Positions 2,056 through 31,308 of a stretch of DNA of 33,046 bases are shown one piece after another. Position 1 is the stretch's first letter. Each line of letters opens with the position of its first letter. The notes under the pieces are model-generated. The model saw only the letters and a program-made list of their open reading frames with translations. It had not been told where the DNA came from and did no database searches. A program made the translations under genes and the position numbers. The stretch covers positions 1-33,046 of the forward strand of contig JBDSJJ010000087.1 in the NCBI GenBank assembly GCA_039917415.1, read 5' to 3'. The DNA is from Candidatus Limnocylindria bacterium. GTDB lineage: Bacteria; Chloroflexota; Limnocylindria; QHBO01.

Positions 2056-2066
2056 GAGCGTAAAAG

Positions 2067-2351: not shown

Positions 2352-2359
2352 GTGGATCG

Positions 2360-3877: not shown

Positions 3878-3879
3878 CC

Positions 3880-4519: not shown

Positions 4520-4803
4520 TGCAGGGCAAGCGAAAGAACAAGATCGGGCGCGTGGTGTCCGACAAGATGGACAAGACCGTGGTCGTGAGCGTCGAACGCC
4601 TGCGACGACACCCGATCTACAAGCGGGTGGTACGGCTCAGCAGCAAGTTCAAGGCGCATGACGCGGACAACGCCGCGCGCGTCGGCGACACGGTGCGCAT
4701 TGAGGAGAGCCGTCCGCTCTCGGCCGAGAAGCGCTGGAAGGTCGTCGAGATCGTGGCGCGTGGCTCGCACGAAGAGCTGATCGACGGGACGGAGCAGGCA
4801 TGA
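4519..4803 (+). CDS. rpsQ: 30S ribosomal protein S17
   Basis: 94 aa with [27 protein letters not shown]. The start overlaps the rpmC stop (TGATG). Confidence 0.97.
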
Positions 4804-5168
4804 TCCAGAAGTACAGCAGGCTGCGCGTGGCCGACAACTCCGGCGCGCGAACGCTGATGTGCATCTCCGTCATCGGGCGCTCGACGAGCGATACCGCCGA
4901 GGTCGGCGACGTCATCGTGGCCAGCGTGAAGCAGGCGCTGCCGAACGCGGCCGTGAAGAAGGGCGAGGTCGTGCGCGCCGTCGTGGTGCGTACCACGAAG
5001 GAGTACGGCCGCCCGGACGGCAGCCACATCCGCTTCGACGAGAACGCGGCAGTGCTCATCACCCCGCAGGGTAGCCCGCGAGGCACGCGCATCTTCGGGC
5101 CGGTGGCACGCGAGCTGCGCGAGCGCAACTACATGAAGATTGTCTCGCTCGCCCCGGAGGTGCTGTAG
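4800..5168 (+). CDS. rplN: 50S ribosomal protein L14
   Basis: 122 aa with [17 protein letters not shown]. The start forms an ATGA overlap with the rpsQ stop. Confidence 0.98.
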
Positions 5169-5504
5169 ATGAACGTGCGAAGGGGTGACACCGTCCTCGT
5201 GCTGGCGGGCAAGGACCGCGGCAAGCGCGGCACGGTTGATCGCGTCCAGAAGACCAAGCGGGGATTCGGCGTCGTGATCCCGGGCATCAACATGGCGAAG
5301 CGCCATCAGCGTGCTCGATCGCGGACGCAGACCGCCGGGATCATCGACCTGCCGGTGCCGATCCACGTCAGCAACGTCCAGGTGATCTGTCCACGCTGCG
5401 ACCGTCCGACACGCGTCGGTCACGGGTTGAGCGAGGGCGATCATGCTCGACGGACGCGCGTCTGCAAGCGCTGCGGCGAGCAGATCGAGGTGACCAGCAA
5501 GTGA
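5169..5504 (+). CDS. rplX: 50S ribosomal protein L24 (Cys4 zinc-ribbon type)
   Basis: 111 aa with the KOW motif [18 protein letters not shown]. The C-terminal part carries CPRC...CKRC. Confidence 0.96.
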
Positions 5505-6130
5505 GTCCCGAAGCAACAAAGAAGGCCGCGGGCAGCCGAGGCACGAAGGCGAAGGCCACCGTCAACGGGTCCTATCGGACCCCGACCTACGCCGGCCTGC
5601 GTCAGCGCTATCACGACGAGGTCGTGCCGGCGATGCAGCGTGAGTTCAGCTATGCGAACCCGATGCAGATCCCGCACGTCGAGAAGATCGTGGTCAACAT
5701 CGGGCTGGGCGAGGCGATTGCCAATGCCAAGGCGCTCGATGCCGCGGTCGGCGACCTGACGACCATCACCGGCCAGAAGCCGATCGTGACGCGTGCCAAG
5801 CGGTCGATCGCGCAGTTCCGACTGCGGACCGGCATGCCGATCGGCGCCAAGGTGACGCTGCGTGGGCAGCGGATGTACGACTTCCTCGAGCGCACGATGT
5901 CGCTCGCGCTTCCGCGCATCCGTGATTTCCGCGGCATTCCGACGCGCTCGTTCGACGGTCGCGGCAATTTCAGCCTTGGCCTCCGCGAGCAGCTCGTCTA
6001 CCCCGAAATCGATTACGACAAGATCGACCGGCTGCGCGGGCTCGAGATCAGCATCGTGACGACGGCGAAGACCGATGAGGAGGGGCGCAAGCTCCTCGAG
6101 CTCCTCGGCATGCCGTTCCAGGCGAACTAG
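5501..6130 (+). CDS. rplE: 50S ribosomal protein L5 (with a basic N-terminal extension; start uncertain)
   Basis: 209 aa. The L5 core begins near residue 30 ([17 protein letters not shown]...[13 protein letters not shown]). A GTG start overlaps the rplX stop (GTGA). There is no in-frame ATG between that start and the core. Confidence 0.93.
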
Positions 6131-17020: not shown

Positions 17021-17040
17021 CCACGAGCCCGATCGAACGT

Positions 17041-17074
17041 CAAAGCGCCCCGGCGGATTCGCCGGGGCGCTTTG
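17041..17074 (+). terminator. Hairpin terminator downstream of rpsI
   Basis: A perfect inverted repeat, CAAAGCGCCCCGGC (17041-17054) and GCCGGGGCGCTTTG (17061-17074), flanks the loop GGATTC. The 3' arm ends in TTT, but no long U-run follows. Confidence 0.6.
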
Positions 17075-17081
17075 GTATCAT
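17073..17081 (+). promoter_or_regulatory. Possible extended -10 element (TGgTATCAT) for cdaA
   Basis: TG at 17073-17074, then one nt, then TATCAT at 17076-17081, abutting the 3' arm of the terminator. I saw no convincing -35. Confidence 0.3.
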
Positions 17082-17122
17082 CCGAGCCTCCGCCACACAG
17101 CAACGCAGGCCATACTGCCCTC

Positions 17123-18058
17123 GTGATCGACGCGCTCCGCGAATTCTTCACGACCTATCTCCGTGGCAGCTGGACGTCGATCGTCGACATCGGGCTGGTG
17201 GCGATCGTCATCTACTGGCTGTTCATCCTGATCCGTGGCACTCGAGCGGTGCGCATCGTGATCGGCCTCTCGATCCTGTACCTCGTCTACCTGGCCGCGT
17301 TGTTGTTCGGCTTCGACCTGCTGCGAAGCCTCATGGAGACCGCCGCCGTGGTCGGCCTCTTCGCGGTGGTGGTGGTGTTCCAGCCTGAGCTGAGGCGCGG
17401 GCTCGAGCAGATCGGTCGCATCGGGTCGGTCAACCGGTTCTTCGTGAGCACCGAAGTCGCCAGTGCCGAGCGCGTTGCGCGCGAGATCAGCCGCGCATCT
17501 CGGATCCTGGCCGGATCGCGCCATGGAGCGCTGATCGTGCTCGAGCGCGAGACGGGCCTCCAGGACCTTGCCACCGAGTCAGGCGTGCCGGTCCACGCCG
17601 ACCTGCGTGCCGAGCTGCTCGTCACGATCTTCTATCGCGGGACCGCCCTGCACGACGGCGCGGTCGTGATCTCCGGTGAGAAGATCAGTTCGGCCGGCGT
17701 CCTGCTTCCGCTGAGCCAGAACGTCGTCGACTCCGAGCGCTACGGGACGCGGCACCGAGCGGCCATCGGCATCAGCGAGCAGACCGACGCCGTGGTCGTG
17801 GTGGTCAGCGAGGAGACCGGGTCGATCTCGCTCGTGGTGCGCGGTCGGATCGAGCGCAATCTCACCGAGGAACACCTGCGACGGCGGATCTTCAATCTCA
17901 TTCGGCCGCAGGCGCCGCGTCGCGCCGTGCCCTTCCTGCGCCGCTCGATCGAGGGCCGGTGGCAGATTGGCCAGGACGCGAGCGACGGCGACGAGCCGAT
18001 CGATCCCGATGCGCGCGTGGTCCCGACGGCGTCCGACGGCCCCACGGTGAGCCGCTGA
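17123..18058 (+). CDS. cdaA: Diadenylate cyclase CdaA (membrane-anchored DAC domain)
   Basis: An N-terminal hydrophobic region (IVDIGLVAIVIYWLFILIRGTRAV...) is followed by a DAC domain (TALHDGAVVI, GTRHRAAIGISEQTDAVVVVVSEETG). The track start at TTG 17072 lies inside the terminator hairpin. GTG 17123 is the next in-frame start. Confidence 0.88.
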   Translation: MIDALREFFTTYLRGSWTSIVDIGLVAIVIYWLFILIRGTRAVRIVIGLSILYLVYLAALLFGFDLLRSLMETAAVVGLFAVVVVFQPELRRGLEQIGRIGSVNRFFVSTEVASAERVAREISRASRILAGSRHGALIVLERETGLQDLATESGVPVHADLRAELLVTIFYRGTALHDGAVVISGEKISSAGVLLPLSQNVVDSERYGTRHRAAIGISEQTDAVVVVVSEETGSISLVVRGRIERNLTEEHLRRRIFNLIRPQAPRRAVPFLRRSIEGRWQIGQDASDGDEPIDPDARVVPTASDGPTVSR

Positions 18059-18059
18059 C

Positions 18060-19310
18060 ATGGGATTCTTTCTGCGCAACTGGCACCTCAAACTGTCCGC
18101 GGTCCTGCTCGCGACGGTGCTCTACACCGGGCTCGTCTTCTCCGGGTCGTTCGCGGAGGCGGACATCAAGGTACGAATCGACCAGGTCAACGCTCCGGCC
18201 GAGTCATTCGTGCTGAGCGGCGACCTGGGATTCGTCGACGTCCGGTATCGCACCACCAACGACGCGGCGCCAACCGTGGTGGCCGAGGCATTTGTGGCGA
18301 GCGTCGACCTGGCCGGCTACGACATGGAACGGGCTCCCGAACCGCAGGTGCTCGACGTCGAAGTCTCGGCCCTGATCGATGGGATCGAGATCCTGTCGCA
18401 CACGCCGTCGACCGTGCGTGTCGAGCTCGACCGCATCGAGGTTCGCACCGTCCCGGTGCAGGTCGAGACGAGCGCGGTACCGAGCGGTCTCGAGATCGGC
18501 GAACCCGTCCTCAGCCACGACAGCGTGGATGTTCGCGGGCCGTCGTCGATCGTCCGTGGCGTGAGTCGGGCTGTGGCATTCGTGAGCATCAGCGCTTCGA
18601 CCATCGACTTCAACGAGCCGGTTGACCTCGTGGCGGTGGATGTCGAGGGCCAGCCGGTCGACACCGGTCGTCTCGAGCTCGAGCCGGGCACGGTGTCGGT
18701 GCAGATCGACGTCGAGGCCACCGAGACCAGCAAGACCGTGCCGGTGCGGCCGGACATCAGCGGGACGCCCGCTCCCGGCTTCGCGCTCGAGTCGCTGTCG
18801 GTCGACCCCTCGGTCGTCACGCTTCGCGGCCTGCCCGAGGATCTCGCTGAAATCGACGAGGTGCTGACCGAGCCCCTGAGCATTGCCGGCGTCTCAGGCG
18901 ATCAGGCCTTCGAGGCGGCGCTCGTCGTCGGAGAATCGGTTCGGCTCGATGCGGCCGATGGCGGGGTCGTGTCGGTCACCGCCACGATCGTGCCATCAGT
19001 CTCCAGCCGCACGTTCGTCGTGGGCATCGTGTGCCAGGGAGCGGGCGAGAACGCGTGCCTCCCGAGTCTCGACCAGCTCACGATCACCCTCAGCGGGCCG
19101 GGCGACACGGTCTCCAGCCTGAGCGCTGGCGCGTTGACGCCGGTCGTGAACGTGACCGGGCTGGGACCGGGGACGTACAACCTCCAGCCGTCGATCGGTG
19201 GCCTGCCGGAAGGCGTCCAGCTGCTGGCAATCACCCCGGGTACCGTGACCGTCACGGTGCGGGCACCGGCCGCCCCGACGCCCACGCCCACGCCGACCCC
19301 GGCGCCGTAG
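18060..19310 (+). CDS. cdaR: CdaA regulatory protein CdaR (YbbR-repeat protein)
   Basis: 416 aa with an N-terminal anchor (FLRNWHLKLSAVLLATVLYTGLVF). Repeated beta-rich modules follow (V.V...P.G....V.P..V.V.G). It lies between cdaA and glmM and ends in a (PT)4 tail. Confidence 0.8.
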   Translation: MGFFLRNWHLKLSAVLLATVLYTGLVFSGSFAEADIKVRIDQVNAPAESFVLSGDLGFVDVRYRTTNDAAPTVVAEAFVASVDLAGYDMERAPEPQVLDVEVSALIDGIEILSHTPSTVRVELDRIEVRTVPVQVETSAVPSGLEIGEPVLSHDSVDVRGPSSIVRGVSRAVAFVSISASTIDFNEPVDLVAVDVEGQPVDTGRLELEPGTVSVQIDVEATETSKTVPVRPDISGTPAPGFALESLSVDPSVVTLRGLPEDLAEIDEVLTEPLSIAGVSGDQAFEAALVVGESVRLDAADGGVVSVTATIVPSVSSRTFVVGIVCQGAGENACLPSLDQLTITLSGPGDTVSSLSAGALTPVVNVTGLGPGTYNLQPSIGGLPEGVQLLAITPGTVTVTVRAPAAPTPTPTPTPAP

Positions 19311-20633
19311 ATGGCGGGCCGCTTCGGCACCGATGGCATCCGCGGTGAGGTGGGAACTGAGATCACCGCGGACCTCGCCCTCGCCCTCGGGCGGGCGGTC
19401 GGCCACCGGTTCGGTGATGGTGTGGCTGTCGTCATTGGGCGGGACCCGCGCCGATCGGGCGAGATGCTCGCCTCGGCACTCGCGGCCGGCCTTACGTCGG
19501 CGGGTGCCGATGTCATGGACCTCGGCATCGTGACGACACCGTGCCTGGTCCACGCCTCAGGTGCCACGAAGTCGGCGGGCATCATGGTGTCGGCGTCCCA
19601 CAATCCGGCGCCCGACAACGGGCTGAAGGTCGTGGTCGACGGACGCAAGGTCGACGACGATGTCGAGCTGGATCTCGACCGCCTGATCGACGATCCGTCG
19701 CCGATCGCCCATCGTCCCAACCATGGGCTCGGCCGCGTCGGCACCAGTGACGATCCGGTACGTGCCTATCGGCGCCACCTGGCCGACATCGCGGGAGACG
19801 CGTTTGAGGGGTTGAGGCTCGGGATTGACTGCGCCAATGGATCGGCCAGCGCCATCGCGCCTGACCTGTTCCGATCGCTGGGCGCCGAGGTCACTGTGCT
19901 CTTTGCAGCCCCGGACGGGACGAATATCAATGACGGGTGCGGCTCGACCCACCCGGGGCGCCTGGCGGCGACGGTTGCGGCGGCGGGCCTCGATGTCGGC
20001 CTGGCCTTCGACGGCGACGCCGATCGGCTCATCGCGGTGGACGAGCAGGGCAGCCTGGTCGACGGCGACGCGATCATGGGGATCTGCGCGCTTGCGCGCC
20101 TTCGGGACGGTTCGTTGCGCAATGGAACCCTGGTGGTGACCGTCATGACAAACGGTGGCCTCGAGCGCGCCGTGACGGAGGCCGGCGGCCGTGTCGTCCG
20201 GACGCCGGTCGGGGACCGCCACGTCTTCGCCGCCATGGAACAGGAGGACGCCGTGCTCGGTGGCGAGCAGTCCGGCCACATCATTTTCCGCGACCGCGCC
20301 TCGACCGGCGATGGACTGCTGACCGGGATCGAGCTCGTGCGGGCCATGCGTCGGTCCGGCATGCCGCTCTCCGAGCTGGCGAGCGGAATTCCGAGGCTCC
20401 CGCAGGTGGTGATAAACTCGGCCGCGAGCCGCCGCAACGAATGGGAGGCGGTCCCGGAGTTCGCGTCGGCCGTGCAGCGCGCCACAGCGCAGATCGGGGC
20501 GCGCGGCAGGATCCTGGTTCGACCGTCGGGCACCGAGCCGAAGATCAGGATCATGGTCGAGGGGGACGATGGTGAGGAGATCGAACGCATCGCCCGCGAG
20601 CTCGCCACGCTCGCCGAGGCACGATTGAACTGA
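19311..20633 (+). CDS. glmM: Phosphoglucosamine mutase
   Basis: 440 aa with FGTDGIRG, the active-site block GIMVSASHNPAPDNG, and FDGDADR. Confidence 0.95.
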   Translation: MAGRFGTDGIRGEVGTEITADLALALGRAVGHRFGDGVAVVIGRDPRRSGEMLASALAAGLTSAGADVMDLGIVTTPCLVHASGATKSAGIMVSASHNPAPDNGLKVVVDGRKVDDDVELDLDRLIDDPSPIAHRPNHGLGRVGTSDDPVRAYRRHLADIAGDAFEGLRLGIDCANGSASAIAPDLFRSLGAEVTVLFAAPDGTNINDGCGSTHPGRLAATVAAAGLDVGLAFDGDADRLIAVDEQGSLVDGDAIMGICALARLRDGSLRNGTLVVTVMTNGGLERAVTEAGGRVVRTPVGDRHVFAAMEQEDAVLGGEQSGHIIFRDRASTGDGLLTGIELVRAMRRSGMPLSELASGIPRLPQVVINSAASRRNEWEAVPEFASAVQRATAQIGARGRILVRPSGTEPKIRIMVEGDDGEEIERIARELATLAEARLN

Positions 20634-20643
20634 GGAGATCCAG

Positions 20644-22473
20644 ATGTGCGGCATCGTCGGGTACGTCGGGCCGCGAGATGCGGCCCCCATCCTGCTCGAG
20701 GGTCTGCGACGCCTCGAGTACCGCGGCTATGACTCGGCCGGGATCGCGATCCTCACCGACGCGGGCGAGGTCTTCATCGAGAAGAAGGCCGGCAAGCTCA
20801 CCAACCTGACCGACCACCTCAACGGCGATGCGCCCGCCGGACACCCAGGCATCGGCCACACCCGCTGGGCGACGCACGGGCGACCCAACGACACCAATGC
20901 CCATCCGCACGTCGACTGCAGCGGCAAGCTGGCCCTGATCCACAACGGGATCATCGAGAACTATGTCGAGATCAAGCAGGAGCTGAGTGCCGCAGGCCAC
21001 CGTTTCTCCTCGGAGACCGACACCGAGGTCCTTGCCCACCTGATCGAGTCGAAATACGACGGTGACCTGGTCGAGGCCGTTCGCCGCGCATTGAACGACG
21101 TTCGGGGCGCATATGCGATCGGCGTCATGCACACCGATCACCCCGATCGGATCGTGGGCGCGCGCATGAACGTTCCCCTGATCGTCGGTCTCGGTGAGGG
21201 GGAAGGATTCCTCGCCAGTGACGTGCCGGCCATCCTCGAGCACACGAAGAACGTCGTCATCCTCCACGAAGGAGACATCGCCGACGTCACTCCGTCCGGC
21301 ACGAGGATCATTTCGCTCGACGGCGAGACGGTGGAGCGCGACACGACCGAGATCCACTGGAACATCGAAGCCGCCGAAAAGGGTGGCTTCGCGCACTTCA
21401 CCCTCAAGGAGATCTACGAGCAGCCGCACGCCATCCAGGAGTGCCTCCGCGGCCGCGTCGACGGAGAGGGCAACGTCACCCTGGACGAGCTGGGCGAGAT
21501 CGAGGATCGGCTGCGCGAGATCGAACGCGTCTACGTCGTGGGCTGTGGAACGGCCAGCTATGCCGCGCACGTGGCGGCCTATCTGATCCAGGACTGGGTC
21601 GGCATCCCGGCCACGATGCAGGTCGGGTCCGAGATGCGGTACAGCCCGCCGCCCATCGATCGGAACACGCTCGTGATCGGCGTGAGCCAGTCGGGGGAGA
21701 CCGCGGACACGCTCGCACCGCTGCGGTTGGCCCAGGAGCGCGGTGCGCTGGTCGTCGTGGTGACCAACGTGGTTGGCAGCGCGATCACCCGCGAGGCCGA
21801 TGCGGTCTGCTATCTCCAGGCCGGCCCCGAGATCGCGGTCGCCAGCACCAAGGCCTTCGTGACCCAGGTGCTCGTCCTCCAGATGATCGCCCTTCACCTG
21901 GCGGCGCTGCGCGAGACGCTGTCGACCAACCGGCTGCGCACGTTCGGACGATCTCTACGCAGCCTGCCGCGCCTCGCCGCCGAGACGCTGAAGCTCGGGC
22001 CGCAGATCAAGAAACTGGCCCGTCGCTTCGCCGGCGCGCGCGACTTCATCTTCATCGGGCGCGGCGTCGGGTACCCGATCGCAATGGAAGGCGCGCTGAA
22101 GCTCAAGGAGCTGAGCTATGTGCATGCCGAGGGCTATGCCGCAGGGGAGCTCAAGCACGGGCCGATCGCCCTCCTCGACCCGGAGACGCCCCTGCTGGCG
22201 ATCGCCACCCGCGGGGCAACGTACGAGAAGGTGACGAGCAACGTGGCCGAGGCGCGTGCCCGATCGGCGCCGGTGATCGCGATCGCCACCGAGGGAGATG
22301 ACCAGATCGATCGCTACGCGGGCGACGTCATCTACGTGCCCGACGTCCCGGAGCCTATCAGCCCGGTCATCGTCGTCCTGCCGCTCCAGCTCCTCGCGTA
22401 CGAGGTCGCCGTTGCCCGCAACACCGACGTCGACCAGCCGCGCAATCTCGCGAAGTCCGTCACCGTCGAGTAG
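20644..22473 (+). CDS. glmS: Glutamine--fructose-6-phosphate aminotransferase
   Basis: 609 aa with the N-terminal nucleophile MCGIVGY, two SIS domains, and a C-terminal KSVTVE. Confidence 0.98.
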   Translation: MCGIVGYVGPRDAAPILLEGLRRLEYRGYDSAGIAILTDAGEVFIEKKAGKLTNLTDHLNGDAPAGHPGIGHTRWATHGRPNDTNAHPHVDCSGKLALIHNGIIENYVEIKQELSAAGHRFSSETDTEVLAHLIESKYDGDLVEAVRRALNDVRGAYAIGVMHTDHPDRIVGARMNVPLIVGLGEGEGFLASDVPAILEHTKNVVILHEGDIADVTPSGTRIISLDGETVERDTTEIHWNIEAAEKGGFAHFTLKEIYEQPHAIQECLRGRVDGEGNVTLDELGEIEDRLREIERVYVVGCGTASYAAHVAAYLIQDWVGIPATMQVGSEMRYSPPPIDRNTLVIGVSQSGETADTLAPLRLAQERGALVVVVTNVVGSAITREADAVCYLQAGPEIAVASTKAFVTQVLVLQMIALHLAALRETLSTNRLRTFGRSLRSLPRLAAETLKLGPQIKKLARRFAGARDFIFIGRGVGYPIAMEGALKLKELSYVHAEGYAAGELKHGPIALLDPETPLLAIATRGATYEKVTSNVAEARARSAPVIAIATEGDDQIDRYAGDVIYVPDVPEPISPVIVVLPLQLLAYEVAVARNTDVDQPRNLAKSVTVE

Positions 22474-22483
22474 AGGCCCTCGC

Positions 22484-22861
22484 ATGAGCCGCCACGAGAT
22501 CGGGATCGACCTGGTCGACATCCATCGTATCCGCGCCGTACTGGGACGGTTCCCGGATCGGTTCCGCCTCCGCGTCCTGACCGAACACGAGCAGGCGTAC
22601 TGCGGCCGGCGCATCGAGCGCATCGCGGGCCGTTGGGCAGCCAAGGAGGCCATCAGCAAGGTGCTGGGCCTCGGGGTCCGCGGCGTCGGCTGGCGCGAGA
22701 TCGAGATCCTGCCCAATCGTGCCGGAGCACCCCAGGTCTACCTCCACGAGCGCGCCGCTCGACGTGCCGCGGCGCTCGACCTCGACGAGGTGAGCGTCTC
22801 GATATCCCACGAGCGCGAGATGGCTGTCGCGGTCGCGGTGGCGCACCGGCGTCACCCGTGA
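22484..22861 (+). CDS. acpS: Holo-[acyl-carrier-protein] synthase
   Basis: ATG 22484 lies 10 nt after the glmS stop; the track start at 22298 overlaps glmS. The product is 125 aa with IGIDLVDIHRI, RWAAKEAISKVLG and ISHEREMAVAVAV. Confidence 0.9.
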   Translation: MSRHEIGIDLVDIHRIRAVLGRFPDRFRLRVLTEHEQAYCGRRIERIAGRWAAKEAISKVLGLGVRGVGWREIEILPNRAGAPQVYLHERAARRAAALDLDEVSVSISHEREMAVAVAVAHRRHP

Positions 22862-22877
22862 CCGTGGGGACACCCGG

Positions 22878-23783
22878 GTGAGCAGGCCGGTTGCGCGCAA
22901 CCTCACGCAGCGCTGGGTCGCGTCGCACCTGCCGGACCGCCCAGCGCGATCGCACAAGGGTGACTTCGGACGCCTGTTGGTCGTCGCCGGATCGACCGAG
23001 TTCCCCGGGGCGGCGATGCTCACCGCTCTCGGGGCCATGCGCGCCGGCGCCGGTGTCGTTCGCGTCGCCGCGGCCGAGTCCGTGGCGGCACGCCTGGCGG
23101 GCGCGATTCCGGAGCTGACCTGGATCGTGCTCGACGAGGAGGCGCCGGGCCTCATTGCCCCCAGCGGCTGGCGCCAGGTTGCCGGCGAGGTCAACAGCCA
23201 GGACGCCGTCGTGATCGGGCCCGGTCTCGGTGCGCAACCGGCCACCCAACGGCGCGCGCGCAACCTCGTGACCGGACTGCGCATCCCCGGAGTGGTTGAC
23301 GCGGACGGTCTCAACGCGCTGGCCTCCGGCGGCAATTGGTGGACCGGGTTGGCGGCCTCGCTGGTGCTCACGCCACATCCGGGCGAGTTCGCGCGGCTGA
23401 CGAGGGCACCAGCACCGAACAGCGACGATGACGACGCTCGCCTGGTCGCCGCGCGCGACGCCGGCCTCCGCTGGCAGCAGGTCGTCGTCCTCAAGGGAGC
23501 GAACACCCTGGTGGCCGATCCGCACGGGGACGTTCTGCGCTCCAACGTTTCGACACCCGCGCTGGCGACAGCCGGCACCGGCGATCTGCTGGCAGGCGTG
23601 ATCGGCGCTTTTTTGGCTGCCGGGTTGGCGCCGATGGAAGCGGCTGGCTGCGCCGTGGCCGTGCATGGCGCAGCCGGGCTGCTGGCGGAGGATCGGATCG
23701 GCCGTGCGGGCGTCATGGCGCGCGACGTGGCGGCGCTCCTTCCCGAGGCCATCGAGCAGTTGCGCGGCGGTCGTGCCCGGTGA
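22878..23783 (+). CDS. nnrD: ADP-dependent NAD(P)H-hydrate dehydratase (YjeF C-terminal-type carbohydrate kinase fold; no epimerase domain)
   Basis: 301 aa with HKGDFGRLLVVAGSTEFPGAAMLTALGAMRAGAG, TPHPGEFARL, VVLKGANTLVA and TAGTGDLLAGVIGAFLA. Confidence 0.85.
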   Translation: MSRPVARNLTQRWVASHLPDRPARSHKGDFGRLLVVAGSTEFPGAAMLTALGAMRAGAGVVRVAAAESVAARLAGAIPELTWIVLDEEAPGLIAPSGWRQVAGEVNSQDAVVIGPGLGAQPATQRRARNLVTGLRIPGVVDADGLNALASGGNWWTGLAASLVLTPHPGEFARLTRAPAPNSDDDDARLVAARDAGLRWQQVVVLKGANTLVADPHGDVLRSNVSTPALATAGTGDLLAGVIGAFLAAGLAPMEAAGCAVAVHGAAGLLAEDRIGRAGVMARDVAALLPEAIEQLRGGRAR

Positions 23784-24910
23784 CGTTGCCCGGCAGCCCG
23801 CATCGGGCCTGGATCGAGGTCGATCATCGAGCGATCCGCTCGAATCTCGCCGCGGTCCGTGTCGCCGCTCCGAGCGCGGAGGTCATCGCGGTGGTGAAGG
23901 CCAACGCCTATGGGCATGGCGCCGTACCCGTTGCTCGAACGCTGCTGGCGGACGGAACCGAGCGCCTGGCGGTCGCCACCATTGACGAGGCGATCGAGCT
24001 GCGTGACGCGGGGATCAGCGCTCCGATCCTCGTCCTGTGGGCCGTCACCGAGGTAGAGGCGGGAGCGATCTCCGCGTACGGTTTGGAGGCGATGGCCGAC
24101 GCTGAGCATTCGATCGTGGCGCTTGAGGCCGCCGGACAGCGAGATGGCGTCCGCATCGGCGTCCATCTCAAGATCGACACGGGCCTGGGTCGCCAGGGAG
24201 CTCGTCCCGAGGACGCGATCAGCCTCGCCACCCGGATCGCCCGCAGCCGCCATCTCCTCCTGGCGGGCACGATGAGCCACCTCGCGGTTCCCGGCGAGGA
24301 CGACGCCTACACCGAGGTCCAGGCCCTGCGCCTGTCCCGCGCGCTGGATGCCATGCGCTCGTCAGGAGTCGACCCGGGGCTCGTGCACATCAGCGCGACG
24401 GGCGGCCTGCTCGCGGGATCAGTCGCCTTCGCCGATGCCGTGCGGCCCGGGCTGGCCCTCTACGGCCTTCGCCCGTCGTGGGCTCGAGCTCGGGAAGCGG
24501 CGCTCACACCGGCGCTCACCCTCAAGGCGCGCGCGCTGCGCGTGTTTGATCTCGGGGCCGGCGAGGCCGTTGGCTACGGGCTTCGCTTTCGAGCAGCACG
24601 CGCCACCCGCATCGCCACGCTCGGCATCGGCTACGGAGACGGGTGGCCGCGCGTCCATGCCAACCATGGATCCGCGCTCGTCCGCGGGTCCCGGGTCCCC
24701 GTCGTCGGAGCGCTGAGCATGGACGGCCTGACCGTGGATGTCGGCGAAATCGATGGTGTAACCTACGGCGACGAATTCGTCCTGATCGGGGAGCAGGGCG
24801 GCGCGCGGATCACAGCCGACGACGTGGCGGCCGAGCGAAGAACCATCAACTACGAAGTGACGACCGCATTGCGCGAGCGTCTCCCGCGGCTCCACATTGG
24901 AGCCGACTGA
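23780..24910 (+). CDS. alr: Alanine racemase
   Basis: 376 aa with a GTG start overlapping the nnrD stop. It has the PLP-lysine block VVKANAYGHG and the later blocks GYGDGW and MDGLTVDV. Confidence 0.94.
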   Translation: MTLPGSPHRAWIEVDHRAIRSNLAAVRVAAPSAEVIAVVKANAYGHGAVPVARTLLADGTERLAVATIDEAIELRDAGISAPILVLWAVTEVEAGAISAYGLEAMADAEHSIVALEAAGQRDGVRIGVHLKIDTGLGRQGARPEDAISLATRIARSRHLLLAGTMSHLAVPGEDDAYTEVQALRLSRALDAMRSSGVDPGLVHISATGGLLAGSVAFADAVRPGLALYGLRPSWARAREAALTPALTLKARALRVFDLGAGEAVGYGLRFRAARATRIATLGIGYGDGWPRVHANHGSALVRGSRVPVVGALSMDGLTVDVGEIDGVTYGDEFVLIGEQGGARITADDVAAERRTINYEVTTALRERLPRLHIGAD

Positions 24911-24942: not shown

Positions 24943-25470
24943 ATGGCATCACCGATCGAGATCGACGTGTGGCAAGGGGAGATTGCAGAGCTCGAGGTGG
25001 ACGCGCTCATCGTCCCGGCCAATGAGTCCCTGTTCATGACCGCCGGAACGGCCGCGTCGGTGAAGCGTCTCGGCGGGGACGAGATCGAACGCAACGCGGT
25101 GGATCAGGGCCCGGCCGAATCCGGAACTGCCATCGCCACGCATGCCGGCTCGCTCGCCGCCGCGTATGTCATCCACGCCGTCGGAGTCGGACATGAGCGC
25201 AATGCCGATCGCGAACGGCTCGCCGCCGCGATTCGCGCGGCGCTCTCCTTCATCGTCCCACTTCAGCTCCGGCGAATCGCCTTCTCCCTCGTCGGCACCG
25301 AGCACGGCGTCTTCACTCCGGCCGAAGCGGCCGAGGTGCTGTTCGCCGAGTTGGCGCTGCCGGACTCGGCGGGTGAGCACTTGGACTCGGTCGTGGTAGC
25401 GACCGCCAACGTCGCCGAGACCCACGCGGTAAACGAGGCGATCGCCGCGCGCCGGGCGCAGGCGAGGTGA
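24943..25470 (+). CDS. Macro-domain protein (divergent; probable ADP-ribose binding or hydrolase fold)
   Basis: 175 aa, with ATG 24943 lying 32 nt after the alr stop. Macro-like blocks are ALIVPANESL, GTAIATHAGSLAAAYVIHAVGVG and RIAFSLVGTEHGVFTP. The usual GGGV..AI glycine loop reads TAGTAASV. Confidence 0.65.
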   Translation: MASPIEIDVWQGEIAELEVDALIVPANESLFMTAGTAASVKRLGGDEIERNAVDQGPAESGTAIATHAGSLAAAYVIHAVGVGHERNADRERLAAAIRAALSFIVPLQLRRIAFSLVGTEHGVFTPAEAAEVLFAELALPDSAGEHLDSVVVATANVAETHAVNEAIAARRAQAR

Positions 25471-25715
25471 GCGGGGACGCCGCGCGCCGCATTGCGCGAG
25501 CGCTCGACCGTCGTGGCCTCACGGTACCCGCCGGGCTGCTGCTCGACGCCCATCGTCCACTCGCTCCGCTCTTGAGCGACCTCGGCGTCGCGCTCGCGCC
25601 GATCCTGACCGCCGCCGCTGGCCCCGATCCGGACACGCTGAGGTTGCTGCGCGACGAAGCCGCCATCGAGCGGATCATCGACGCCCTCGAGGAGCGGCAT
25701 GCCGAGCCCCGCTGA
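25467..25715 (+). CDS. Hypothetical small soluble protein (82 aa), first gene of the unassigned cluster
   Basis: The GTG start overlaps the macro-gene stop (GTGA). Third positions are G/C-rich throughout. It has no hydrophobic segment and no motif I recognise. Confidence 0.6.
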   Translation: MSGDAARRIARALDRRGLTVPAGLLLDAHRPLAPLLSDLGVALAPILTAAAGPDPDTLRLLRDEAAIERIIDALEERHAEPR

Positions 25716-26550
25716 CCTGCTCGGACGCCTCGTCCGCTTCATCGGCGAAGTGCTCGGCGCCTCTTCGCTTAGGTTCGAAATCGGTACCACGATTGTCCTG
25801 CTCGGCGTTCTCCTCGTGCTCCTCCAGCTCGTTGCTCGGCCCATCAGCCGCTGGGTCACCGCCGATGCGGCCGGCCTCGCTGGCGTCGGACGCGCCATGG
25901 CGCTGGCCGCCGAGTCGGGGACCGATGCGGTCGTGTCGCTGGGAGGAGGCGGTATCACCCGCACGACCGATGCCCTGGCACGGCTCCAGACGATCGCCTC
26001 GCTTCCGCTGCTTGGCCACGTGGCCCGGGCGGCGGCGCGCAGCGGCGTTCCCCTGCGCGTCCTGGTCAACGATCCCATCGCCGCCTCCCTGGCCGCTGCC
26101 ACGGTGGATGCTGCCCACGAAGCCACGGCCACGCTGGAGCGACAGGGACGCACGCGGATTGTCATCGTCGGCGAGGGACGCCCGGCGATCGCCGGCCTGG
26201 CAATGACGACTCGGGCGCGGCCCGCGGCGGCATTCGCGTTCGGATCTCTCCGCGAGGAAGCGCTGCTTCACCTCGACGGTTTGCGGAGCGGTGCCGGCAC
26301 CCTGACGACCGTCAGCGCCGACGCGGCGCAGGCTCCGTCCCTGCGGTTGGGAGGGGGATCGGCGCTCATCGGGCCTGAACTGTTCCAGGCCGGCGCCGAT
26401 CTGAGGTCGAGCGTGGACGAGCGCACGATGGTGATGGCGGGCAATCGGCTCATCGGCCTGGCGGTTGCGGTCGTCGCAATCGGGACCGTGCTCGCCATGG
26501 CGGGCATCATCGACCTCGGGGAGATCCTGGTCGGAGTCGCGCGCGAGTGA
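25699..26550 (+). CDS. Hypothetical bitopic membrane protein (N-terminal TM, ~200-aa soluble domain, C-terminal TM)
   Basis: 283 aa. GAGGAG precedes ATG 25699, which overlaps the previous gene by 17 nt. The hydrophobic helices are IGTTIVLLGVLLVLLQLVA and LIGLAVAVVAIGTVLAMAGII. The middle looks alpha/beta, with the strands AVVSLGGGG, LRVLVND and RIVIVGEG. Confidence 0.7.
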   Translation: MPSPADLLGRLVRFIGEVLGASSLRFEIGTTIVLLGVLLVLLQLVARPISRWVTADAAGLAGVGRAMALAAESGTDAVVSLGGGGITRTTDALARLQTIASLPLLGHVARAAARSGVPLRVLVNDPIAASLAAATVDAAHEATATLERQGRTRIVIVGEGRPAIAGLAMTTRARPAAAFAFGSLREEALLHLDGLRSGAGTLTTVSADAAQAPSLRLGGGSALIGPELFQAGADLRSSVDERTMVMAGNRLIGLAVAVVAIGTVLAMAGIIDLGEILVGVARE

Positions 26551-27164
26551 CGCGCCCGACCATCACCGCGCTCGTGGTCCTGGTCGGGCTGCTGCTGTTG
26601 GCGGATCTGCTGGTCGTCAACAGCGCCCTTCAAGACGTGGCCGGCGTCGTGGTCGACGCCGCGATCCTGGTGGCCGCGGGCGCCGCGCTTGCTGCCGGGG
26701 CATCCCTCGTGACGCGCCGCCTCGGCGACCTGTGGCGCCGTCGCGGAGACCCGATCGGCGCCCTGCTCGTGGTGGCGGGTGTCGCCGCCATGCTCGTGGC
26801 CGGCATGCGTCCGGGCTCCAGCGGGTCCGATGATCCCGCCGTGCAGTGGCTGCTGGCCGCGCTGCTCATCCCGATCGGGGCCACGCTGTTCGGGCTGCTC
26901 TTCGTCTCGACCGTCGCCGCCGCCCGGCGATCGGTGGCCGGCGGCAGTCGAGAGGCAGTCGTGCTGGTCACGGCAACGACGATCACCGTCCTGCTCCTCC
27001 TTCCGCTGGCCGGCAGCATCGGCTCCTGGCTCTCGGATGCCAGCGGCTGGATGCTCGGGACGGCGGTGGCTTCGGTGTTTCGTGGCCTGCTGATCGGTAT
27101 CGCACTGCTGGGCGCGGTGTATGCGGCCCGCACGATGCTCGGGATCGGGTCCGCCGATGAGTGA
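26547..27164 (+). CDS. Hypothetical polytopic membrane protein (~6 hydrophobic segments)
   Basis: 205 aa with a GTGA overlap to the previous gene. It is almost entirely hydrophobic helices separated by short Arg/Gly/Ser loops. Confidence 0.7.
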   Translation: MTRPTITALVVLVGLLLLADLLVVNSALQDVAGVVVDAAILVAAGAALAAGASLVTRRLGDLWRRRGDPIGALLVVAGVAAMLVAGMRPGSSGSDDPAVQWLLAALLIPIGATLFGLLFVSTVAAARRSVAGGSREAVVLVTATTITVLLLLPLAGSIGSWLSDASGWMLGTAVASVFRGLLIGIALLGAVYAARTMLGIGSADE

Positions 27165-28002
27165 CCGCCGACCACCGTGGTCGCTGCTCGCGCCCGCGCT
27201 GCTGCTCGTCCTGCTGGGAGTCGCATGGCTGCTGCCGGATCTCGACGTCCTGGGTCTCGAGGCGGACGATGACGGCCCTCAGGCGGACGTTCGGGCCACG
27301 CTGGACGGACTGGGCCCGGCTCCGCTGGTGCTCATCGGGTTCGACGCCGACCTCGGCACATATGCGGAGGTGCGACCCACGGTGCGGACGCTCATCGCCG
27401 ACCTGCTGGTGCGAGACGCACGGATCGCGTTCGTGTCGCTTACCGTCGAAGGACGCGCCCTGGCGACGAGCGAGCAGGCCCGCCTGCGGCGCGGCGAGGC
27501 AAATGCGAACCGCATGCTCGATCTTGGCTTCATCCCCGCCGCCGAGGCCGGCCTGGTGGACCTCACGCGCAGCATCCGGCCGGATGACGATGCGGGTGCC
27601 CTGGCATTCGCCAGGGAAGTCTCGACCGCGGGAATGGCCGCGTTCGACGCGATCATCGTCGTGGGCGGTAACGATCTCGGGCCGCGTAGCTGGATCGAGC
27701 AGGTCGCACCTCGGATCGCGCCCACTCCGATCGTGGCCATCACCCCGAGCGTGCTGCTGCCCGAGGTCCTGCCCTACGTTGCGAGCGGCCAGCTGGCCGC
27801 CCTGATCGGCACGCCGGGCGACGGGGCCGCGTATCGATCCGCAGCCGAGGTGGGCTCGCTCGAGCGCCTGGTCGAGGCGGGTGGTCCGCGGTCTCTCCCC
27901 ATCCTGGTCGGTCTTCTCATCGCAGCGGGCGCCATGGGACAGGCCCTCGTCGCACGCCTGGTCGGAACGACGAGATCCCTTGCTGATCGAGACCGCGCAT
28001 GA
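27157..28002 (+). CDS. Hypothetical bitopic membrane protein (N-terminal TM, soluble alpha/beta-like domain, C-terminal TM)
   Basis: 281 aa. ATG 27157 overlaps the previous stop (ATGAGTGA); the track start at 27121 overlaps further. The hydrophobic helices are WSLLAPALLLVLLGVAWLL and LPILVGLLIAAGAMGQALVA. The strands are LVLIGFD, RIAFVSL, AIIVVGG and PIVAITP. Confidence 0.7.
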   Translation: MSDRRPPWSLLAPALLLVLLGVAWLLPDLDVLGLEADDDGPQADVRATLDGLGPAPLVLIGFDADLGTYAEVRPTVRTLIADLLVRDARIAFVSLTVEGRALATSEQARLRRGEANANRMLDLGFIPAAEAGLVDLTRSIRPDDDAGALAFAREVSTAGMAAFDAIIVVGGNDLGPRSWIEQVAPRIAPTPIVAITPSVLLPEVLPYVASGQLAALIGTPGDGAAYRSAAEVGSLERLVEAGGPRSLPILVGLLIAAGAMGQALVARLVGTTRSLADRDRA

Positions 28003-28643
28003 CCGGACTGTTCGGCGCCGGCCCGGCGGAGGTGGTCGGAACCTGGGTCGCGGCCACTCTCACGCTCGTGGTCCTCGGCTCGCTGCTCGGAGAACGGCGC
28101 ATGTTCGGCTGGTCGCAACATCTGCTGGCTGGCCTCGCGACCGGTTTCCTGGCGTTGATCGCCCTGCGCGAGGTAATCGCCCCGCGCCTCCTCGAGCCGC
28201 TGGCCGCCGATCCTGCGGGCCGACCCGAACTGTGGGGTGGCGTGGCGCTCGTGGCGGTCGCGGCCGCCGCACCGTGGCTGCCGCGGCGCGTGACGGCCGT
28301 TCCGGCCTCGATCGCGATCGGGGCCCTGGCCGCATTCGCCCTCGCTGGCGCCGTGATCGGCACACTGCTGCCCCAGCTTGACGCCGCGATCGTGCGCCCG
28401 GGAAGCGATCTCGGCGCAACCGTGGTCGGTGTGATCGGCGCCGTGGTGACCGGACTCGTGCTCATCGGGTTCGTGCATGGCGTGCCGCGCGGCCGGATCC
28501 TCACGTCGGCGGCGGGCGTCGGGCGTTGGTTGCTCGTTGCCGGCATCGGCGCGTGGCTCGGCTACCTCGTCCTGTCGCGACTCATCCTGCTCATCGATCG
28601 CATCGGCTTCCTGCTTGGCGAGTGGCTGGGGTTCGTACCGTGA
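27999..28643 (+). CDS. Hypothetical polytopic membrane protein (~6 hydrophobic segments)
   Basis: 214 aa with an ATGA overlap to the previous gene. It is a hydrophobic multi-helix protein. Confidence 0.7.
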   Translation: MTGLFGAGPAEVVGTWVAATLTLVVLGSLLGERRMFGWSQHLLAGLATGFLALIALREVIAPRLLEPLAADPAGRPELWGGVALVAVAAAAPWLPRRVTAVPASIAIGALAAFALAGAVIGTLLPQLDAAIVRPGSDLGATVVGVIGAVVTGLVLIGFVHGVPRGRILTSAAGVGRWLLVAGIGAWLGYLVLSRLILLIDRIGFLLGEWLGFVP

Positions 28644-30277
28644 GCCAGCCTCGCGTGCGCGCCGAGATGGCGGTCCTGATCGATGTCGGCTCCGCATGGG
28701 CCAAGGCCGGGGTCATCGGCCAGGTTGGCGGTCGCTGGCGCCTCGTGGCCCATGCCACACAGCCGACGGCCTGGGGCTCGGCCGCGCTGCGTGCGGCGCT
28801 GGTCGACCAGCTCGCGTCGGCCGTCGATGCGCGATTGACCGGTCAGGTCGACCAGCTGTTGGCGGATGCGCGCAGGATCGAATGCCACACCGCCATCCCG
28901 CCGCGCCTGGCGATCGTGGCGGTCAGCCGTGAGCTGTCGGGGAGCGCGGCCCGACGCGCCGCAGAGGCGGCGGGGTGGCACGTGGTCGAGTTCATGACCC
29001 TCGACGACGGCAGGGACCTCGCCGATCGGCTGGCGACCCTGCAGGCAGCCGAGGTAAGCGCCTGGCTTATCGCAGGAGGCTTCGACGGTGCGCGCAGCCC
29101 CCGAGCGCTCGAGGCCGCGGCGCTGGTGGCCGCAGCGCGGCGTCAGGGCGGCGGGCCGGTGGTGTGGGCCGGCTCGGCGGATCTCGGGCCTGACGTCGTG
29201 GAGCTCTTCGAGCCAGGGGTCGTGGCGACCGTCGCGAACCCCCGACCTGACGCACGCCGCGACGAGCCCGGGCCACTGCGCGATCACCTCGTTGCCCTGC
29301 TCAGGGACGAGGTTGCGGTCACGGAGGAGACGCATCTCGCATCGTCAACCTTCGGTCGAGCCGTGGGTGCCCTGGCCACGCTCAGCGGGTTGCGCATCCT
29401 GGGCGTCGACCTCGGGGCGCGTTCAGCTGTCAGGGTGCTGGCCGAGCCAGATGGCAGCGTCGCCAGCCGAGTCCGCGCTCGTGGCGGCCTGGCGGGCACC
29501 GTCCTCGTGTCCGGCGCCGCGGCCCGCGTCGCCCGCCTGGCCGGCGATGCGGGCGACGAGTCGGCCGTCGCCGACGTGCTGCAGACCCTGCGCGCCCGCC
29601 CCACAACCCTGCCGCAGACGGTCGAGGAGCTCTCGGCCACCCAGACGGCCGCGCGGGTCCAGCTGGCGGCGATGTTCGACGAGGGGACCGACGGGTCTGT
29701 CGATCTCGTCATCGGTGCCGGCCGCACCTTGGCGGCTGCGCCGTACCCCGGACAGGCTGCCCGCATGCTGCTCGACGGAGTGCGCCCGCTCGGGGTGACG
29801 CAGCTTGCCGTCGATGCCGGCGCTGTGCTCGGCCCGCTCGGCTCGCTTCCCGACGACCAGGTGCGGGAGGGCGTCTCGCTGCTCGGCGAGGACCTCCTTG
29901 TGCCCCTCGGCACAGCGATCGTGTGCCGCGGCGGCGACCCCGGCCGGACCGCGATGCGCGTCACCCTGCATCGGGCAGGCTGGCCGGCGGTGGGTCCGGT
30001 CGAGATGCGGACCGGGCAGCTCCAGGTGCTGCCGCTGCCGCGCGGTCAGGTCGCCGAGGTGACGATCGAGCTGCTCGGGTCGGCCACCTTCGGCGCGACC
30101 CGCCGTTCGCCCCGCATCCAGGCCATGGTCTCGGGTGGCGCGGTCGGGCTGATTCTCGACGCGCGCGGGTCGCCGATCGGACTCCCGCGACGCGGCGACG
30201 ATCGGCGCGAGGTGCTGGCCGCATGGCGCGATGCGCTGAACCGGGATGCCGCCGCCGGAGCGGAGCGCTTCGCATGA
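28640..30277 (+). CDS. GlmL/MutL-like ASKHA-fold (actin/Hsp70/sugar-kinase superfamily) protein with an extra C-terminal domain
   Basis: 545 aa from GTG 28640, which forms a GTGA overlap; the alternative start is ATG 28667, and the track start at 28526 overlaps the previous gene. The ordered blocks are LIDVGSAWAKAG, PRLAIVAVSRELSGSAARRAAEAAGWHVV, WLIAGGFDGA...PVVWAGS, ILGVDLGARSAV and DLVIGAGRTL. There are no hydrophobic helices. Confidence 0.6.
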   Translation: MSQPRVRAEMAVLIDVGSAWAKAGVIGQVGGRWRLVAHATQPTAWGSAALRAALVDQLASAVDARLTGQVDQLLADARRIECHTAIPPRLAIVAVSRELSGSAARRAAEAAGWHVVEFMTLDDGRDLADRLATLQAAEVSAWLIAGGFDGARSPRALEAAALVAAARRQGGGPVVWAGSADLGPDVVELFEPGVVATVANPRPDARRDEPGPLRDHLVALLRDEVAVTEETHLASSTFGRAVGALATLSGLRILGVDLGARSAVRVLAEPDGSVASRVRARGGLAGTVLVSGAAARVARLAGDAGDESAVADVLQTLRARPTTLPQTVEELSATQTAARVQLAAMFDEGTDGSVDLVIGAGRTLAAAPYPGQAARMLLDGVRPLGVTQLAVDAGAVLGPLGSLPDDQVREGVSLLGEDLLVPLGTAIVCRGGDPGRTAMRVTLHRAGWPAVGPVEMRTGQLQVLPLPRGQVAEVTIELLGSATFGATRRSPRIQAMVSGGAVGLILDARGSPIGLPRRGDDRREVLAAWRDALNRDAAAGAERFA

Positions 30278-31308
30278 GCGTGGTCCACCGGATTCCGCTG
30301 CCGGTCGGAGCGACACCGATGGTCGAGGTCGGGCACGTGGTCGAGCCGTCCGAGGTGCTGGCAACGCGGCGGACGCCGCGTGGCGGGCAAGCAATCGCCG
30401 TCGCCGCTCCCCTGCGTCGCTCGGCCGTGGACGCTGCTGCCTGCCTGACCGTTCGACCGGGGACGTTCCTGGATGCGGGCGCCACCCTCGCCGACAACGG
30501 ACGGGGGCGCGTGGTTCGGGTCCCCGAGTCCTGCATCCTGCTTGGATACGATCGCGACGACGGCTCGGCGCTCATCGCTCCGCTCAGTGGCAGCCAGCCG
30601 GTGGTGGGTCATGTGCGCGGCGAGGTGGTCGCCATGGAGCCGGACGCCATCGAGGTCCGCGTCAGCGGCGCCCTCGTGGGAGGGGTGGGTGGCACGGGCA
30701 ACGCCGTCCACGGGGAGCTCAGGGTGGCCGTCCATGACCCGGCCGCCGAACTGCGTGCCAGCGCCATCGACGTCGGGGCTACCGGGCGCATCCTCGTCGG
30801 GGGCTCGCGCGCTTCGGCTGAGACGCTGACGCGGGCACGCGCGATGGGTGTCGCCGGAATCGTCCTCGGCGGAGTCCTCGACAAAGAGCTGCGTGACTTC
30901 GAGGCGACGCAGGTCCGACGCCGGGAGCTCGGAGTGGTGCGGGGCGACTTCGCGGTAATCCTGCTGGAGGGCTACGGCAAAGTCGGGTTCGATCCTGGGC
31001 TGTTCGCCTGGTTCCAGCGCCACGATGGTCGCCTGGCCAGCCTGTTCGGAGCCGATGCCCGCCTCTACGTCTACGACGCGGAGCCCGCTCCCGCGCGGCG
31101 CATGCTGGCTCGCTCAGGGGAGCGCGTCATCGCCCACCGACGTCCGCACGCTGGGTTGGCGGGAGAGCTGATCCGCGTCCTCGACCGTCCGCACGCGTTC
31201 GGATCCGGGGTCGTGGGGCGCGCCGCCGTCGTCCGGTTCGATGACGGACGTACCGCGATCGTTCCGCTCGCCAACCTCGAGGCCACGGAGGCGTTTCCCG
31301 TCGGTTGA
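30274..31308 (+). CDS. Hypothetical soluble protein (beta-barrel/lipoyl-like N-terminus, central alpha/beta segment, KOW/SH3-like C-terminus)
   Basis: 344 aa with an ATGA overlap to the previous gene; the track start at 29923 is a 5'-extended shadow. The N-terminus has MVEVGHVVEPSEVLA and TVRPGTFLDAGATLA. The middle has ILVGGSRASAETLTRARAMGVAGIVLGG. The C-terminus has GERVIAHRRPHAGLAGELIRV...AAVVRFDDGRTAIVPLANLE. Confidence 0.65.
   Translation: MSVVHRIPLPVGATPMVEVGHVVEPSEVLATRRTPRGGQAIAVAAPLRRSAVDAAACLTVRPGTFLDAGATLADNGRGRVVRVPESCILLGYDRDDGSALIAPLSGSQPVVGHVRGEVVAMEPDAIEVRVSGALVGGVGGTGNAVHGELRVAVHDPAAELRASAIDVGATGRILVGGSRASAETLTRARAMGVAGIVLGGVLDKELRDFEATQVRRRELGVVRGDFAVILLEGYGKVGFDPGLFAWFQRHDGRLASLFGADARLYVYDAEPAPARRMLARSGERVIAHRRPHAGLAGELIRVLDRPHAFGSGVVGRAAVVRFDDGRTAIVPLANLEATEAFPVG

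Follow-up and report, generated by a model that had tools for sequence, protein, structure and literature searches.

The stretch of DNA analysed here (33,046 nucleotides of Candidatus Limnocylindria bacterium; contig JBDSJJ010000087.1 of assembly GCA_039917415.1, forward strand), which we refer to as the window, carries on its plus strand a translationally coupled run of seven tightly packed genes, g1 to g7 (25467-31308), whose junctions overlap by 4-17 nt (Table 1). We focus on the sixth, g6 (28640-30277), which had been put forward from its sequence as a GlmL/MutL-like member of the ASKHA superfamily with no B12 mutase partner, partly eroded nucleotide-binding motifs and an unassigned C-terminal domain, possibly recruited to a membrane complex (hereafter, the original prediction); every sequence block quoted in that prediction is found in the plus-strand translation of the gene. 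Judged by its sequence, g6 descends from the same Pfam family as GlmL, the accessory protein of a B12-dependent mutase; it belongs to a long subfamily set apart by a C-terminal beta domain and an obligatory linkage to g7, and its gene is also locked to those for a small protein and four membrane proteins. We consider it probable that g6 is the soluble ASKHA subunit of a conserved seven-protein module with a membrane part.

That the reading frame is a genuine gene, in a genome of Chloroflexota (Ca. Limnocylindria type), is shown by its coding-like codon-position GC content (0.81/0.57/0.85), by its GTG start, which shares a GTGA with the stop of g5, by the matching start position of its homologues, and by the large number of these. 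Run without filters against 1.84 billion representatives, HMMER returned 928 clusters (50% identity level) at E <= 1e-3; among the 150 best-listed clusters most members have 530-630 aa and an alignment that spans almost all of g6, C-terminus included, while short fragments and a few longer fusions make up most of the remainder. Close homologues number 549, mostly labelled Chloroflexota or Candidatus Limnocylindria; NCBI names the protein ‘glutamate mutase L’. One homologue, the 70%-identical P0057, is labelled Thermoleophilaceae (Actinomycetota), the other close matches all being Chloroflexota; this probably reflects a binning error in that metagenome-assembled genome (MAG). Long stop-free frames with high GC at third codon positions overlap g6 and g7 on the minus strand (window 28565-29344 and 30049-31113), and a 1040-aa ‘protein’ called in a related locus (P0293; L001 8204-11638, plus strand) was considered as a fusion and rejected, being a stop-free frame in GC-rich DNA; antisense and out-of-frame open reading frames (ORFs) over g6 and g7 are artefacts of this kind.

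The gene neighbourhood is conserved well beyond the window’s own lineage. Two Anaerolineae contigs, L007 and L008, carry the same seven genes in the same order, and all seven window proteins match their positional counterparts there (BLASTP E 1e-6 to 1e-25). A scan of genome contigs with g6 alone recovered only three near-identical loci, and a metagenome scan with a 12-sequence alignment as query supplied 80 more. Adjacency was scored with iterated hidden Markov models (HMMs) for each gene, in loci with enough flanking sequence: g7 adjoins g6 downstream in 67 of 69, g5 lies directly 5' of g6 in 52 of 60, and g1-g5 were all found in 17 of the 20 loci whose upstream flank reaches 4.5 kb or more. 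The exceptions to the g5 adjacency fall into several kinds. In L001 and L003, g5 is there and was missed by the adjacency test; L062, L066 and L081 show a second gene order that begins g1-g6-g7, continuing with g2-g3-g4-g5 in L066 and L081 and ending within g7 in L062 (L073 has this same order, with g6 at the contig edge, and was left out of the count); and L004, L041 and L052 have no membrane genes near g6. A tandem g6-g7-g1-g6-g7 is found in L059. In addition, fusions of g6 to g7 of ~1000 aa occur in Ozemobacteraceae and other metagenomes (P0179 and P0195, with P0184 resembling a third whose g7-like part is truncated). These alternative architectures suggest a cytoplasmic sub-module and a membrane sub-module, and the synteny in two gene orders, together with the fusion, lends support to the earlier proposal that an ASKHA scaffold has been recruited to a membrane complex.

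Named members of the long subfamily come also from Planctomycetota and from Clostridium sp. ‘deep sea’. Two long MutL-type proteins carry large additional N-terminal parts, a Peptidase_M1 domain in P0257 (1332 aa, from a Bacillota MAG) and a bacterial TSP3 repeat in P0256 (1304 aa). A PADLOC scan of all seven operon proteins gave no defence-system match, and a literature search on DUF6754, PF13941, TIGR01319, ‘glutamate mutase L’ and GlmL-like proteins found nothing relevant; the operon as a whole appears to be undescribed.

A Pfam scan of g6 (E <= 0.1) returned MutL (PF13941) and nothing else, at 71 bits (E 1.1e-19) against a gathering threshold of 27 bits, with residues 12-221 aligned to profile positions 2-200 of 450, such that the threshold is passed through the N-terminal half only; the models for EutA, DdrA/PduG, PilM, FtsA, MreB/ParM and hydantoinase A gave no match at that level. 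The second half of the protein is tied to the MutL model because intermediate homologues match it in full: relatives at 26-35% identity to g6 cover positions 1-450 (E 1e-49 to 1e-128) and run ~120 residues beyond its end. An AlphaFold2 model built from an alignment of 114 sequences (predicted local distance difference test, pLDDT, 90; predicted TM-score, pTM, 0.86) has two lobes, each opened by a three-stranded unit, with the strands at residues 10-42 and 253-279. Searched against the PDB with Foldseek, this model gave 89 matches at E <= 1e-3, of which the 50 best listed are all ASKHA proteins: PilM, which is the top match, Ppx/GppA, acetone carboxylase, N-methylhydantoinase, 2-hydroxyacyl-CoA dehydratase activators, FtsA, EutJ and DnaK, with E-values of 1e-7 to 1e-4 and low TM-scores (0.2-0.35). 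The significant Pfam match and the confident model thus bear out the ASKHA fold call. No PDB chain matched full-length g6 in a phmmer search and, therefore, no close relative has been solved.

For comparison with a true GlmL we took locus L089, from the Peptoclostridium acidaminophilum megaplasmid, where the order is glmS-glmL-glmE-methylaspartate ammonia-lyase-adenosyltransferase. The GlmL blocks LIDFGSTYTK, SSAAGGL, GGTDGG, AGN, VDVGGATTD and ATGGSL align opposite the blocks of g6, which confirms the motifs and the order given in the original prediction. The two proteins thus have in common both the order of blocks (DxGS(T)xTK, SSAGG loop, GGxDGG, AGN, VDxGGATT and GxGG positions) and an ASKHA fold whose lobe I has an alpha/beta insertion. 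In contrast, GlmL adjoins or lies between glmS and glmE, whereas g6 never does and sits in a seven-gene membrane operon; g6 also has ~120 extra C-terminal residues, GlmL (461 aa) stopping exactly where this C-terminal domain begins, and four of its glycine-rich loops are rewritten. BLASTP finds 22% identity between the two, over the N-terminal half only (E 9e-4). Against the curated models, g6 scores 31.6 bits with the GlmL equivalog NF040745 (cut-off 475) and 31 bits with TIGR01319 (cut-off 204; relatives 41-149 bits), and its orthologues from other clades also lie under both cut-offs. The Or-4 protein of ornithine degradation (NF040744) and TIGR01319 belong to the same superfamily, and Anaerolineae-type and g6+g7-type relatives give 60-208 bits to these models; however, all tested relatives lie under the curated cut-offs, the context of g6 holds no aminomutase, and NF040744 gave no reported match to g6 at E <= 0.1. 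The GlmL/MutL-like assignment therefore stands at the level of the Pfam family and fails at both curated GlmL models: on all these grounds g6 is not GlmL, and belongs to the MutL family only in a broad sense.

No mutase or cobalamin gene was found among the window’s main ORFs scanned against Pfam, and phmmer searches of ORFs of at least 50 aa in the window and 88 related loci found no homologue of GlmS, GlmE, methylaspartate ammonia-lyase or the adenosyltransferase; the supposition that g6 lacks a mutase partner is borne out, and its homologues travel with the same six partner genes, four of them for membrane proteins, and in none of the 88 loci with a B12 mutase. Neither of the outcomes named beforehand as counting against the original prediction, a lack of ASKHA matches or a tie of the homologues to B12 mutases, was seen. 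The same observations bear on whether g6 is, after all, a true reactivase or chaperone in the style of GlmL, EutA or DdrA, serving an enzyme encoded elsewhere and lying beside its neighbours by accident. The NCBI name and the ancestry in common with GlmL and Or-4 are in keeping with that idea, but the same six partners recur in two gene orders and in no fewer than two classes of Chloroflexota, g6 can be fused to g7, no locus holds a mutase, the curated models score far below their cut-offs, and g6 combines an extra C-terminal domain with eroded nucleotide loops. We regard it as largely refuted, and thus highly improbable.

The C-terminal region had been described as beta-rich and unassigned, and so it proves: the AlphaFold2 model shows seven beta strands (residues 421-507) and one helix (519-534) within residues ~421-534, the last ~8 residues of the protein not being confidently modelled, and the domain matched nothing by sequence in Pfam or the PDB and has no counterpart in GlmL. 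The most conserved motif of the family sits here, namely GGAVGLILDARGSPIGLP (nt 30134-30187); across the long subfamily it reads GGxxGLIIDARGRPLxLP, with a consensus GGxxG(L/I)(I/L)xDxRxxP to which g6 conforms, and D507, R509 and P512 do not vary among 55 diverse long-subfamily sequences. A hotdog or a TOBE-like fold was considered for this domain and dropped, as each rested on single matches at E 0.04-0.06.

We then compared the nucleotide-binding loops of 34 Limnocylindria-type copies with those of 53 other long-family copies. The Limnocylindria lineage has rewritten four of the five glycine-rich loops and gained an arginine in three of them: the canonical TSSAGG reads CHTAIPP in the window clade, GGxDGGA reads GGFDGAR, the phosphate-2 loop DxGGATT reads DLGARSA and the adenosine loop GxGGVL reads GAGRTL. 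The phosphate-2 GG is kept in none of the 34 Limnocylindria-type copies (37/53 of the others), the adenosine GG in 3/34 (against 40/53) and the DGG in 0/29 (against 49/52), and these changes are conserved down to ~45% identity. Because the remodelling is clade-wide, we take it to have been selected. The altered phosphate-2 and adenosine motifs that had been noted in the window gene are, then, a property of its clade; the idea of motif erosion holds for the Limnocylindria lineage and does not extend to the long subfamily as a whole, in which most other members are canonical. The phosphate-1 block DVGS...K (D15, G17, S18, K22) and D257 are still present in g6. From this pattern we infer that the window protein may have lost ATPase activity, and that g6 in most lineages probably binds ATP.

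It is here that a second explanation has to be considered, in which g6, as an active ATPase, powers the membrane module and is the motor or gate of a new transporter or envelope-assembly machine, with the altered loops binding nucleotide in some other way. The conserved phosphate-1 residues and D257, the canonical phosphate-2 and adenosine loops of most non-Limnocylindria members, and the ATP-driven nature of clan relatives such as hydantoinases, acetone carboxylase and dehydratase activators all speak for it. Set against these are the loss of the phosphate-2 GG from every Limnocylindria-type copy, the arginines standing in place of backbone-amide glycines in three loops, and the failure of g3 and g5 to match any known transporter family, such that we judge an active ATPase rather unlikely, albeit the most credible of the alternatives that we weigh.

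Table 1. Coordinates of the g1-g7 genes, of the adjoining Macro-domain gene and of the parts of g6 within the window
Feature	Position (nt)	Strand	Description
Macro-domain gene	24943..25470	+	Pfam Macro E 3e-16; GTGA (4-nt) overlap with g1 start
g1	25467..25715	+	82 aa; one central hydrophobic/amphipathic stretch; first module gene; GTG start overlaps Macro gene stop
g2	25699..26550	+	DUF6754, 283 aa; Pfam PF20539 E 7e-15
g3	26547..27164	+	205-aa polytopic membrane protein; ~6 hydrophobic segments (hydropathy)
g4	27157..28002	+	281-aa bitopic protein: transmembrane segment, ~220-aa domain, transmembrane segment (hydropathy)
g5	27999..28643	+	214-aa polytopic membrane protein; ~5-6 hydrophobic segments (hydropathy)
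g6	28640..30277	+	545-aa ASKHA-fold protein; Pfam MutL/GlmL family, long subfamily
g6 lobe I with inserted alpha/beta subdomain	28667..29389	+	residues ~10-250; Pfam match, model secondary structure
g6 block DVGS	28682-28693	+	translation
g6 block ECHTAIPP	28880-28903	+	translation
g6 block GGFDGAR	29075-29095	+	translation
g6 lobe II	29390..29893	+	residues ~251-418; alignment with true GlmL and canonical long-family members
g6 block DLGARSA	29408-29428	+	translation
g6 block GAGR	29714-29725	+	translation
g6 C-terminal beta domain and helix	29894..30250	+	residues ~419-537; absent from GlmL
g7	30274..31308	+	344-aa soluble protein; ATGA overlap with g6 stop

For the partner protein g7, profile matches and a model point to a barrel-sandwich-hybrid N-domain of the RnfC/NqrA kind, an alpha/beta middle and a KOW/SH3-like C-domain: sub-threshold Pfam matches were obtained to RnfC_N in 11 of 37 members (best 1.2e-5), to NQRA_N in 9/37 and to KOW in 9/37 (best 2e-6), and profile matches to Spt5/uL24 KOW domains (E 3e-5) and to NqrA (E 0.04). 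The model of g7 (pLDDT 71) was made from a four-row alignment that includes three long proteins (two full g6+g7 fusions and one truncated). Its N-terminal part is rich in beta structure, its middle is alpha/beta and a small barrel forms its C-terminus; Foldseek on this model gave only KOW/Tudor barrels and weak alpha/beta matches. As in the N-terminal halves of NqrA and RnfC, a barrel-sandwich-hybrid is thus followed by an alpha/beta domain in a cytoplasmic protein encoded together with ~200-aa polytopic membrane proteins; unlike them, g7 has a KOW domain at its C-terminus, where NqrA and RnfC have SLBB or Fe-S domains, and g3 and g5 do not match the Rnf/Nqr families.

Amongst the membrane proteins, g2 has a ~200-aa domain between N-terminal and C-terminal hydrophobic segments (hydropathy) and no PDB sequence match. 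Orthologues of g3 hold the same operon position; g3 itself had no Pfam match, the window sequence alone being scanned, and no PDB profile match. The polytopic g5 matches its L007 and L008 orthologues at BLASTP E 1e-19, with no consistent Pfam match among members and no PDB match. Three relationships were considered here and dropped: that g3 and g5 are duplicates of one another (hhalign probability 0.2%), that they are Rnf/Nqr-type subunits (no PDB profile matches, and no consistent Pfam match for g5), and that g2 and g4 share a domain (hhalign probability 0.8%). The g4 start was placed at the M(S/T/N)(D/E)R that is conserved in its relatives. Its ~220-aa domain is probably extracytoplasmic; the protein has no PDB match, and its counterpart in Anaerolineae is the C-terminal part of zinc-ribbon proteins of 830-1290 aa (BLASTP E 1e-10 to L008 and 1e-6 to L007). 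These Anaerolineae-type proteins (L007 5655-8306; L008 5755-8256; L085 ~1830-5709; also in L076 and L068) have cytoplasmic N-terminal extensions of 300-1000 aa, absent from the window clade, in which a zinc ribbon is followed by acidic repeats with up to 22 PxW[LIMV] motifs, whose appearance suggests multivalent docking. For the window g4, a PxWL docking motif in its cytoplasmic N-terminal part was considered and dropped, as the motif is not conserved in Limnocylindria-type g4. Finally, homologues of g1 lie ahead of the gene for DUF6754 or for the ASKHA protein in 20+ loci, and g1 has no family match in Pfam and NCBIfam scans.

With the partners in view, a third alternative can be weighed, namely that the module is a membrane-anchored metabolic enzyme complex, a hydantoinase-type ATP-dependent carboxylase or hydrolase, with g7 as its carrier-like barrel-sandwich-hybrid subunit. 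Relatives of g6 do give Hydantoinase_A and Hydant_A_N matches, at sub-threshold or borderline level and without a reported domain, acetone carboxylase and N-methylhydantoinase are among the fold matches, and g7 has weak Biotin_lipoyl matches. Against this, there is no homologue of a catalytic beta-subunit (Hydantoinase_B), no conserved lysine at the biotin/lipoyl position was apparent by eye in aligned g7 sequences, no systematic search being made, and the nucleotide loops of the window g6 are eroded; we hold such an enzyme to be improbable.

The rest of the window is given over to housekeeping genes, with ribosomal operons, secY, map, rpoA, cdaA, ybbR, glmM, glmS, nnrD and alr, and then tsaE, tsaB and rimI. 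Directly upstream, on the same strand (17021-24910), lie cdaA (DAC), ybbR/cdaR, glmM, glmS, the NAD(P)H-hydrate dehydratase gene and alr, and the block through tsaE-tsaB-rimI is syntenic in L090, a 57%-identical relative. The Macro-domain gene that is translationally coupled to g1 is likewise placed in L090 (6267-6791) and is absent from Anaerolineae loci; it encodes an ADP-ribose-binding or hydrolase type of protein that is possibly a lineage-specific eighth member. The position of the operon beside cell-envelope precursor genes in Limnocylindria provides a weak hint as to its function. In Anaerolineae loci, the region 3' of g7 (L007 11973-13860, L008 12044-14141, L091 5599-7523) encodes a ~165-190-aa protein with a transmembrane segment, a Pro/Thr-rich region, and a C-terminal hydrophobic segment and RR tail that resemble a sorting signal, followed by an AAA_16/nSTAND + Trans_reg_C regulator and, in L007 and L091, by PspA.

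Synthesising these findings, we propose a model in which g1, g6 and g7 would form the cytoplasmic part of the module, and g2 (DUF6754), the polytopic g3 and g5, and the bitopic g4 with its external domain would form the membrane part. We envisage that g6 and g7 bind each other to make up the cytoplasmic face of a membrane complex, and that they may dock on the membrane proteins much as PilM, FtsA, GspL or NqrA/RnfC do on theirs. The first three can be compared with g6, which is likewise a soluble ASKHA protein whose gene lies with those for bitopic and polytopic membrane proteins, PilM being the top structural match; the cytoplasmic domain of GspL is an ASKHA scaffold that has lost its functional nucleotide site. 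They differ from g6 in sequence-family membership, in their domain insertions and in their partners, which are unrelated, and the TM-scores are low. Because the nucleotide cleft is remodelled in the Limnocylindria lineage, the protein encoded there would most likely be a scaffold or regulator that is independent of nucleotide, or that takes a different, possibly anionic, ligand, as opposed to an ATP-hydrolysing reactivase. Our best guess is thus that g6 serves a new membrane complex from the cytoplasmic side, as its scaffold or as a regulatory subunit.

Several observations weigh against this proposal. The case for a physical complex is an indirect one, built on synteny, translational coupling and fusion; L004 has g6 and g7 only, accompanied by two unrelated small genes, and L041 and L052 have g1 and g6 only, and therefore the membrane part is not always adjacent to g6. 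The g7 model is moderately confident, and the RnfC/NqrA similarity lies below threshold. With D15, G17, S18, K22 and D257 retained, binding of nucleotide or phosphate by g6 may persist, and the window protein could be active through a changed site; moreover, since most non-Limnocylindria members are canonical, the ancestral machine may need ATP hydrolysis.

Going further, we speculate, with less confidence than we attach to g6 as a module subunit and as a possibility that we would put somewhat short of even, that the seven genes specify an unrecognised membrane or envelope machine of Chloroflexota, Planctomycetota, some Bacillota and Ozemobacteraceae, with a GlmL-type ASKHA protein as its cytoplasmic engine or scaffold and an NqrA/RnfC-like adaptor. 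If true, this would define an ASKHA-coupled membrane apparatus of a new class, of which the Limnocylindria, to our knowledge a group without a cultured model, would have a natural pseudo-ATPase version. In that group the operon lies within a conserved block of housekeeping and cell-envelope-precursor genes (cdaA, glmM, glmS and alr). Many database sequences are automatically named ‘glutamate mutase L’; the long subfamily is not tied to glutamate mutase, and the label is corrected here. The module as we define it also gives a setting to six orphan families besides g6, DUF6754 and five that are unnamed. More broadly, the GlmL branch of the ASKHA superfamily, viewed as chaperones of B12 enzymes, seems to have been co-opted by a membrane-associated system, and the loops that are rewritten in one lineage and kept in most others provide a natural experiment on the need for ATP turnover.

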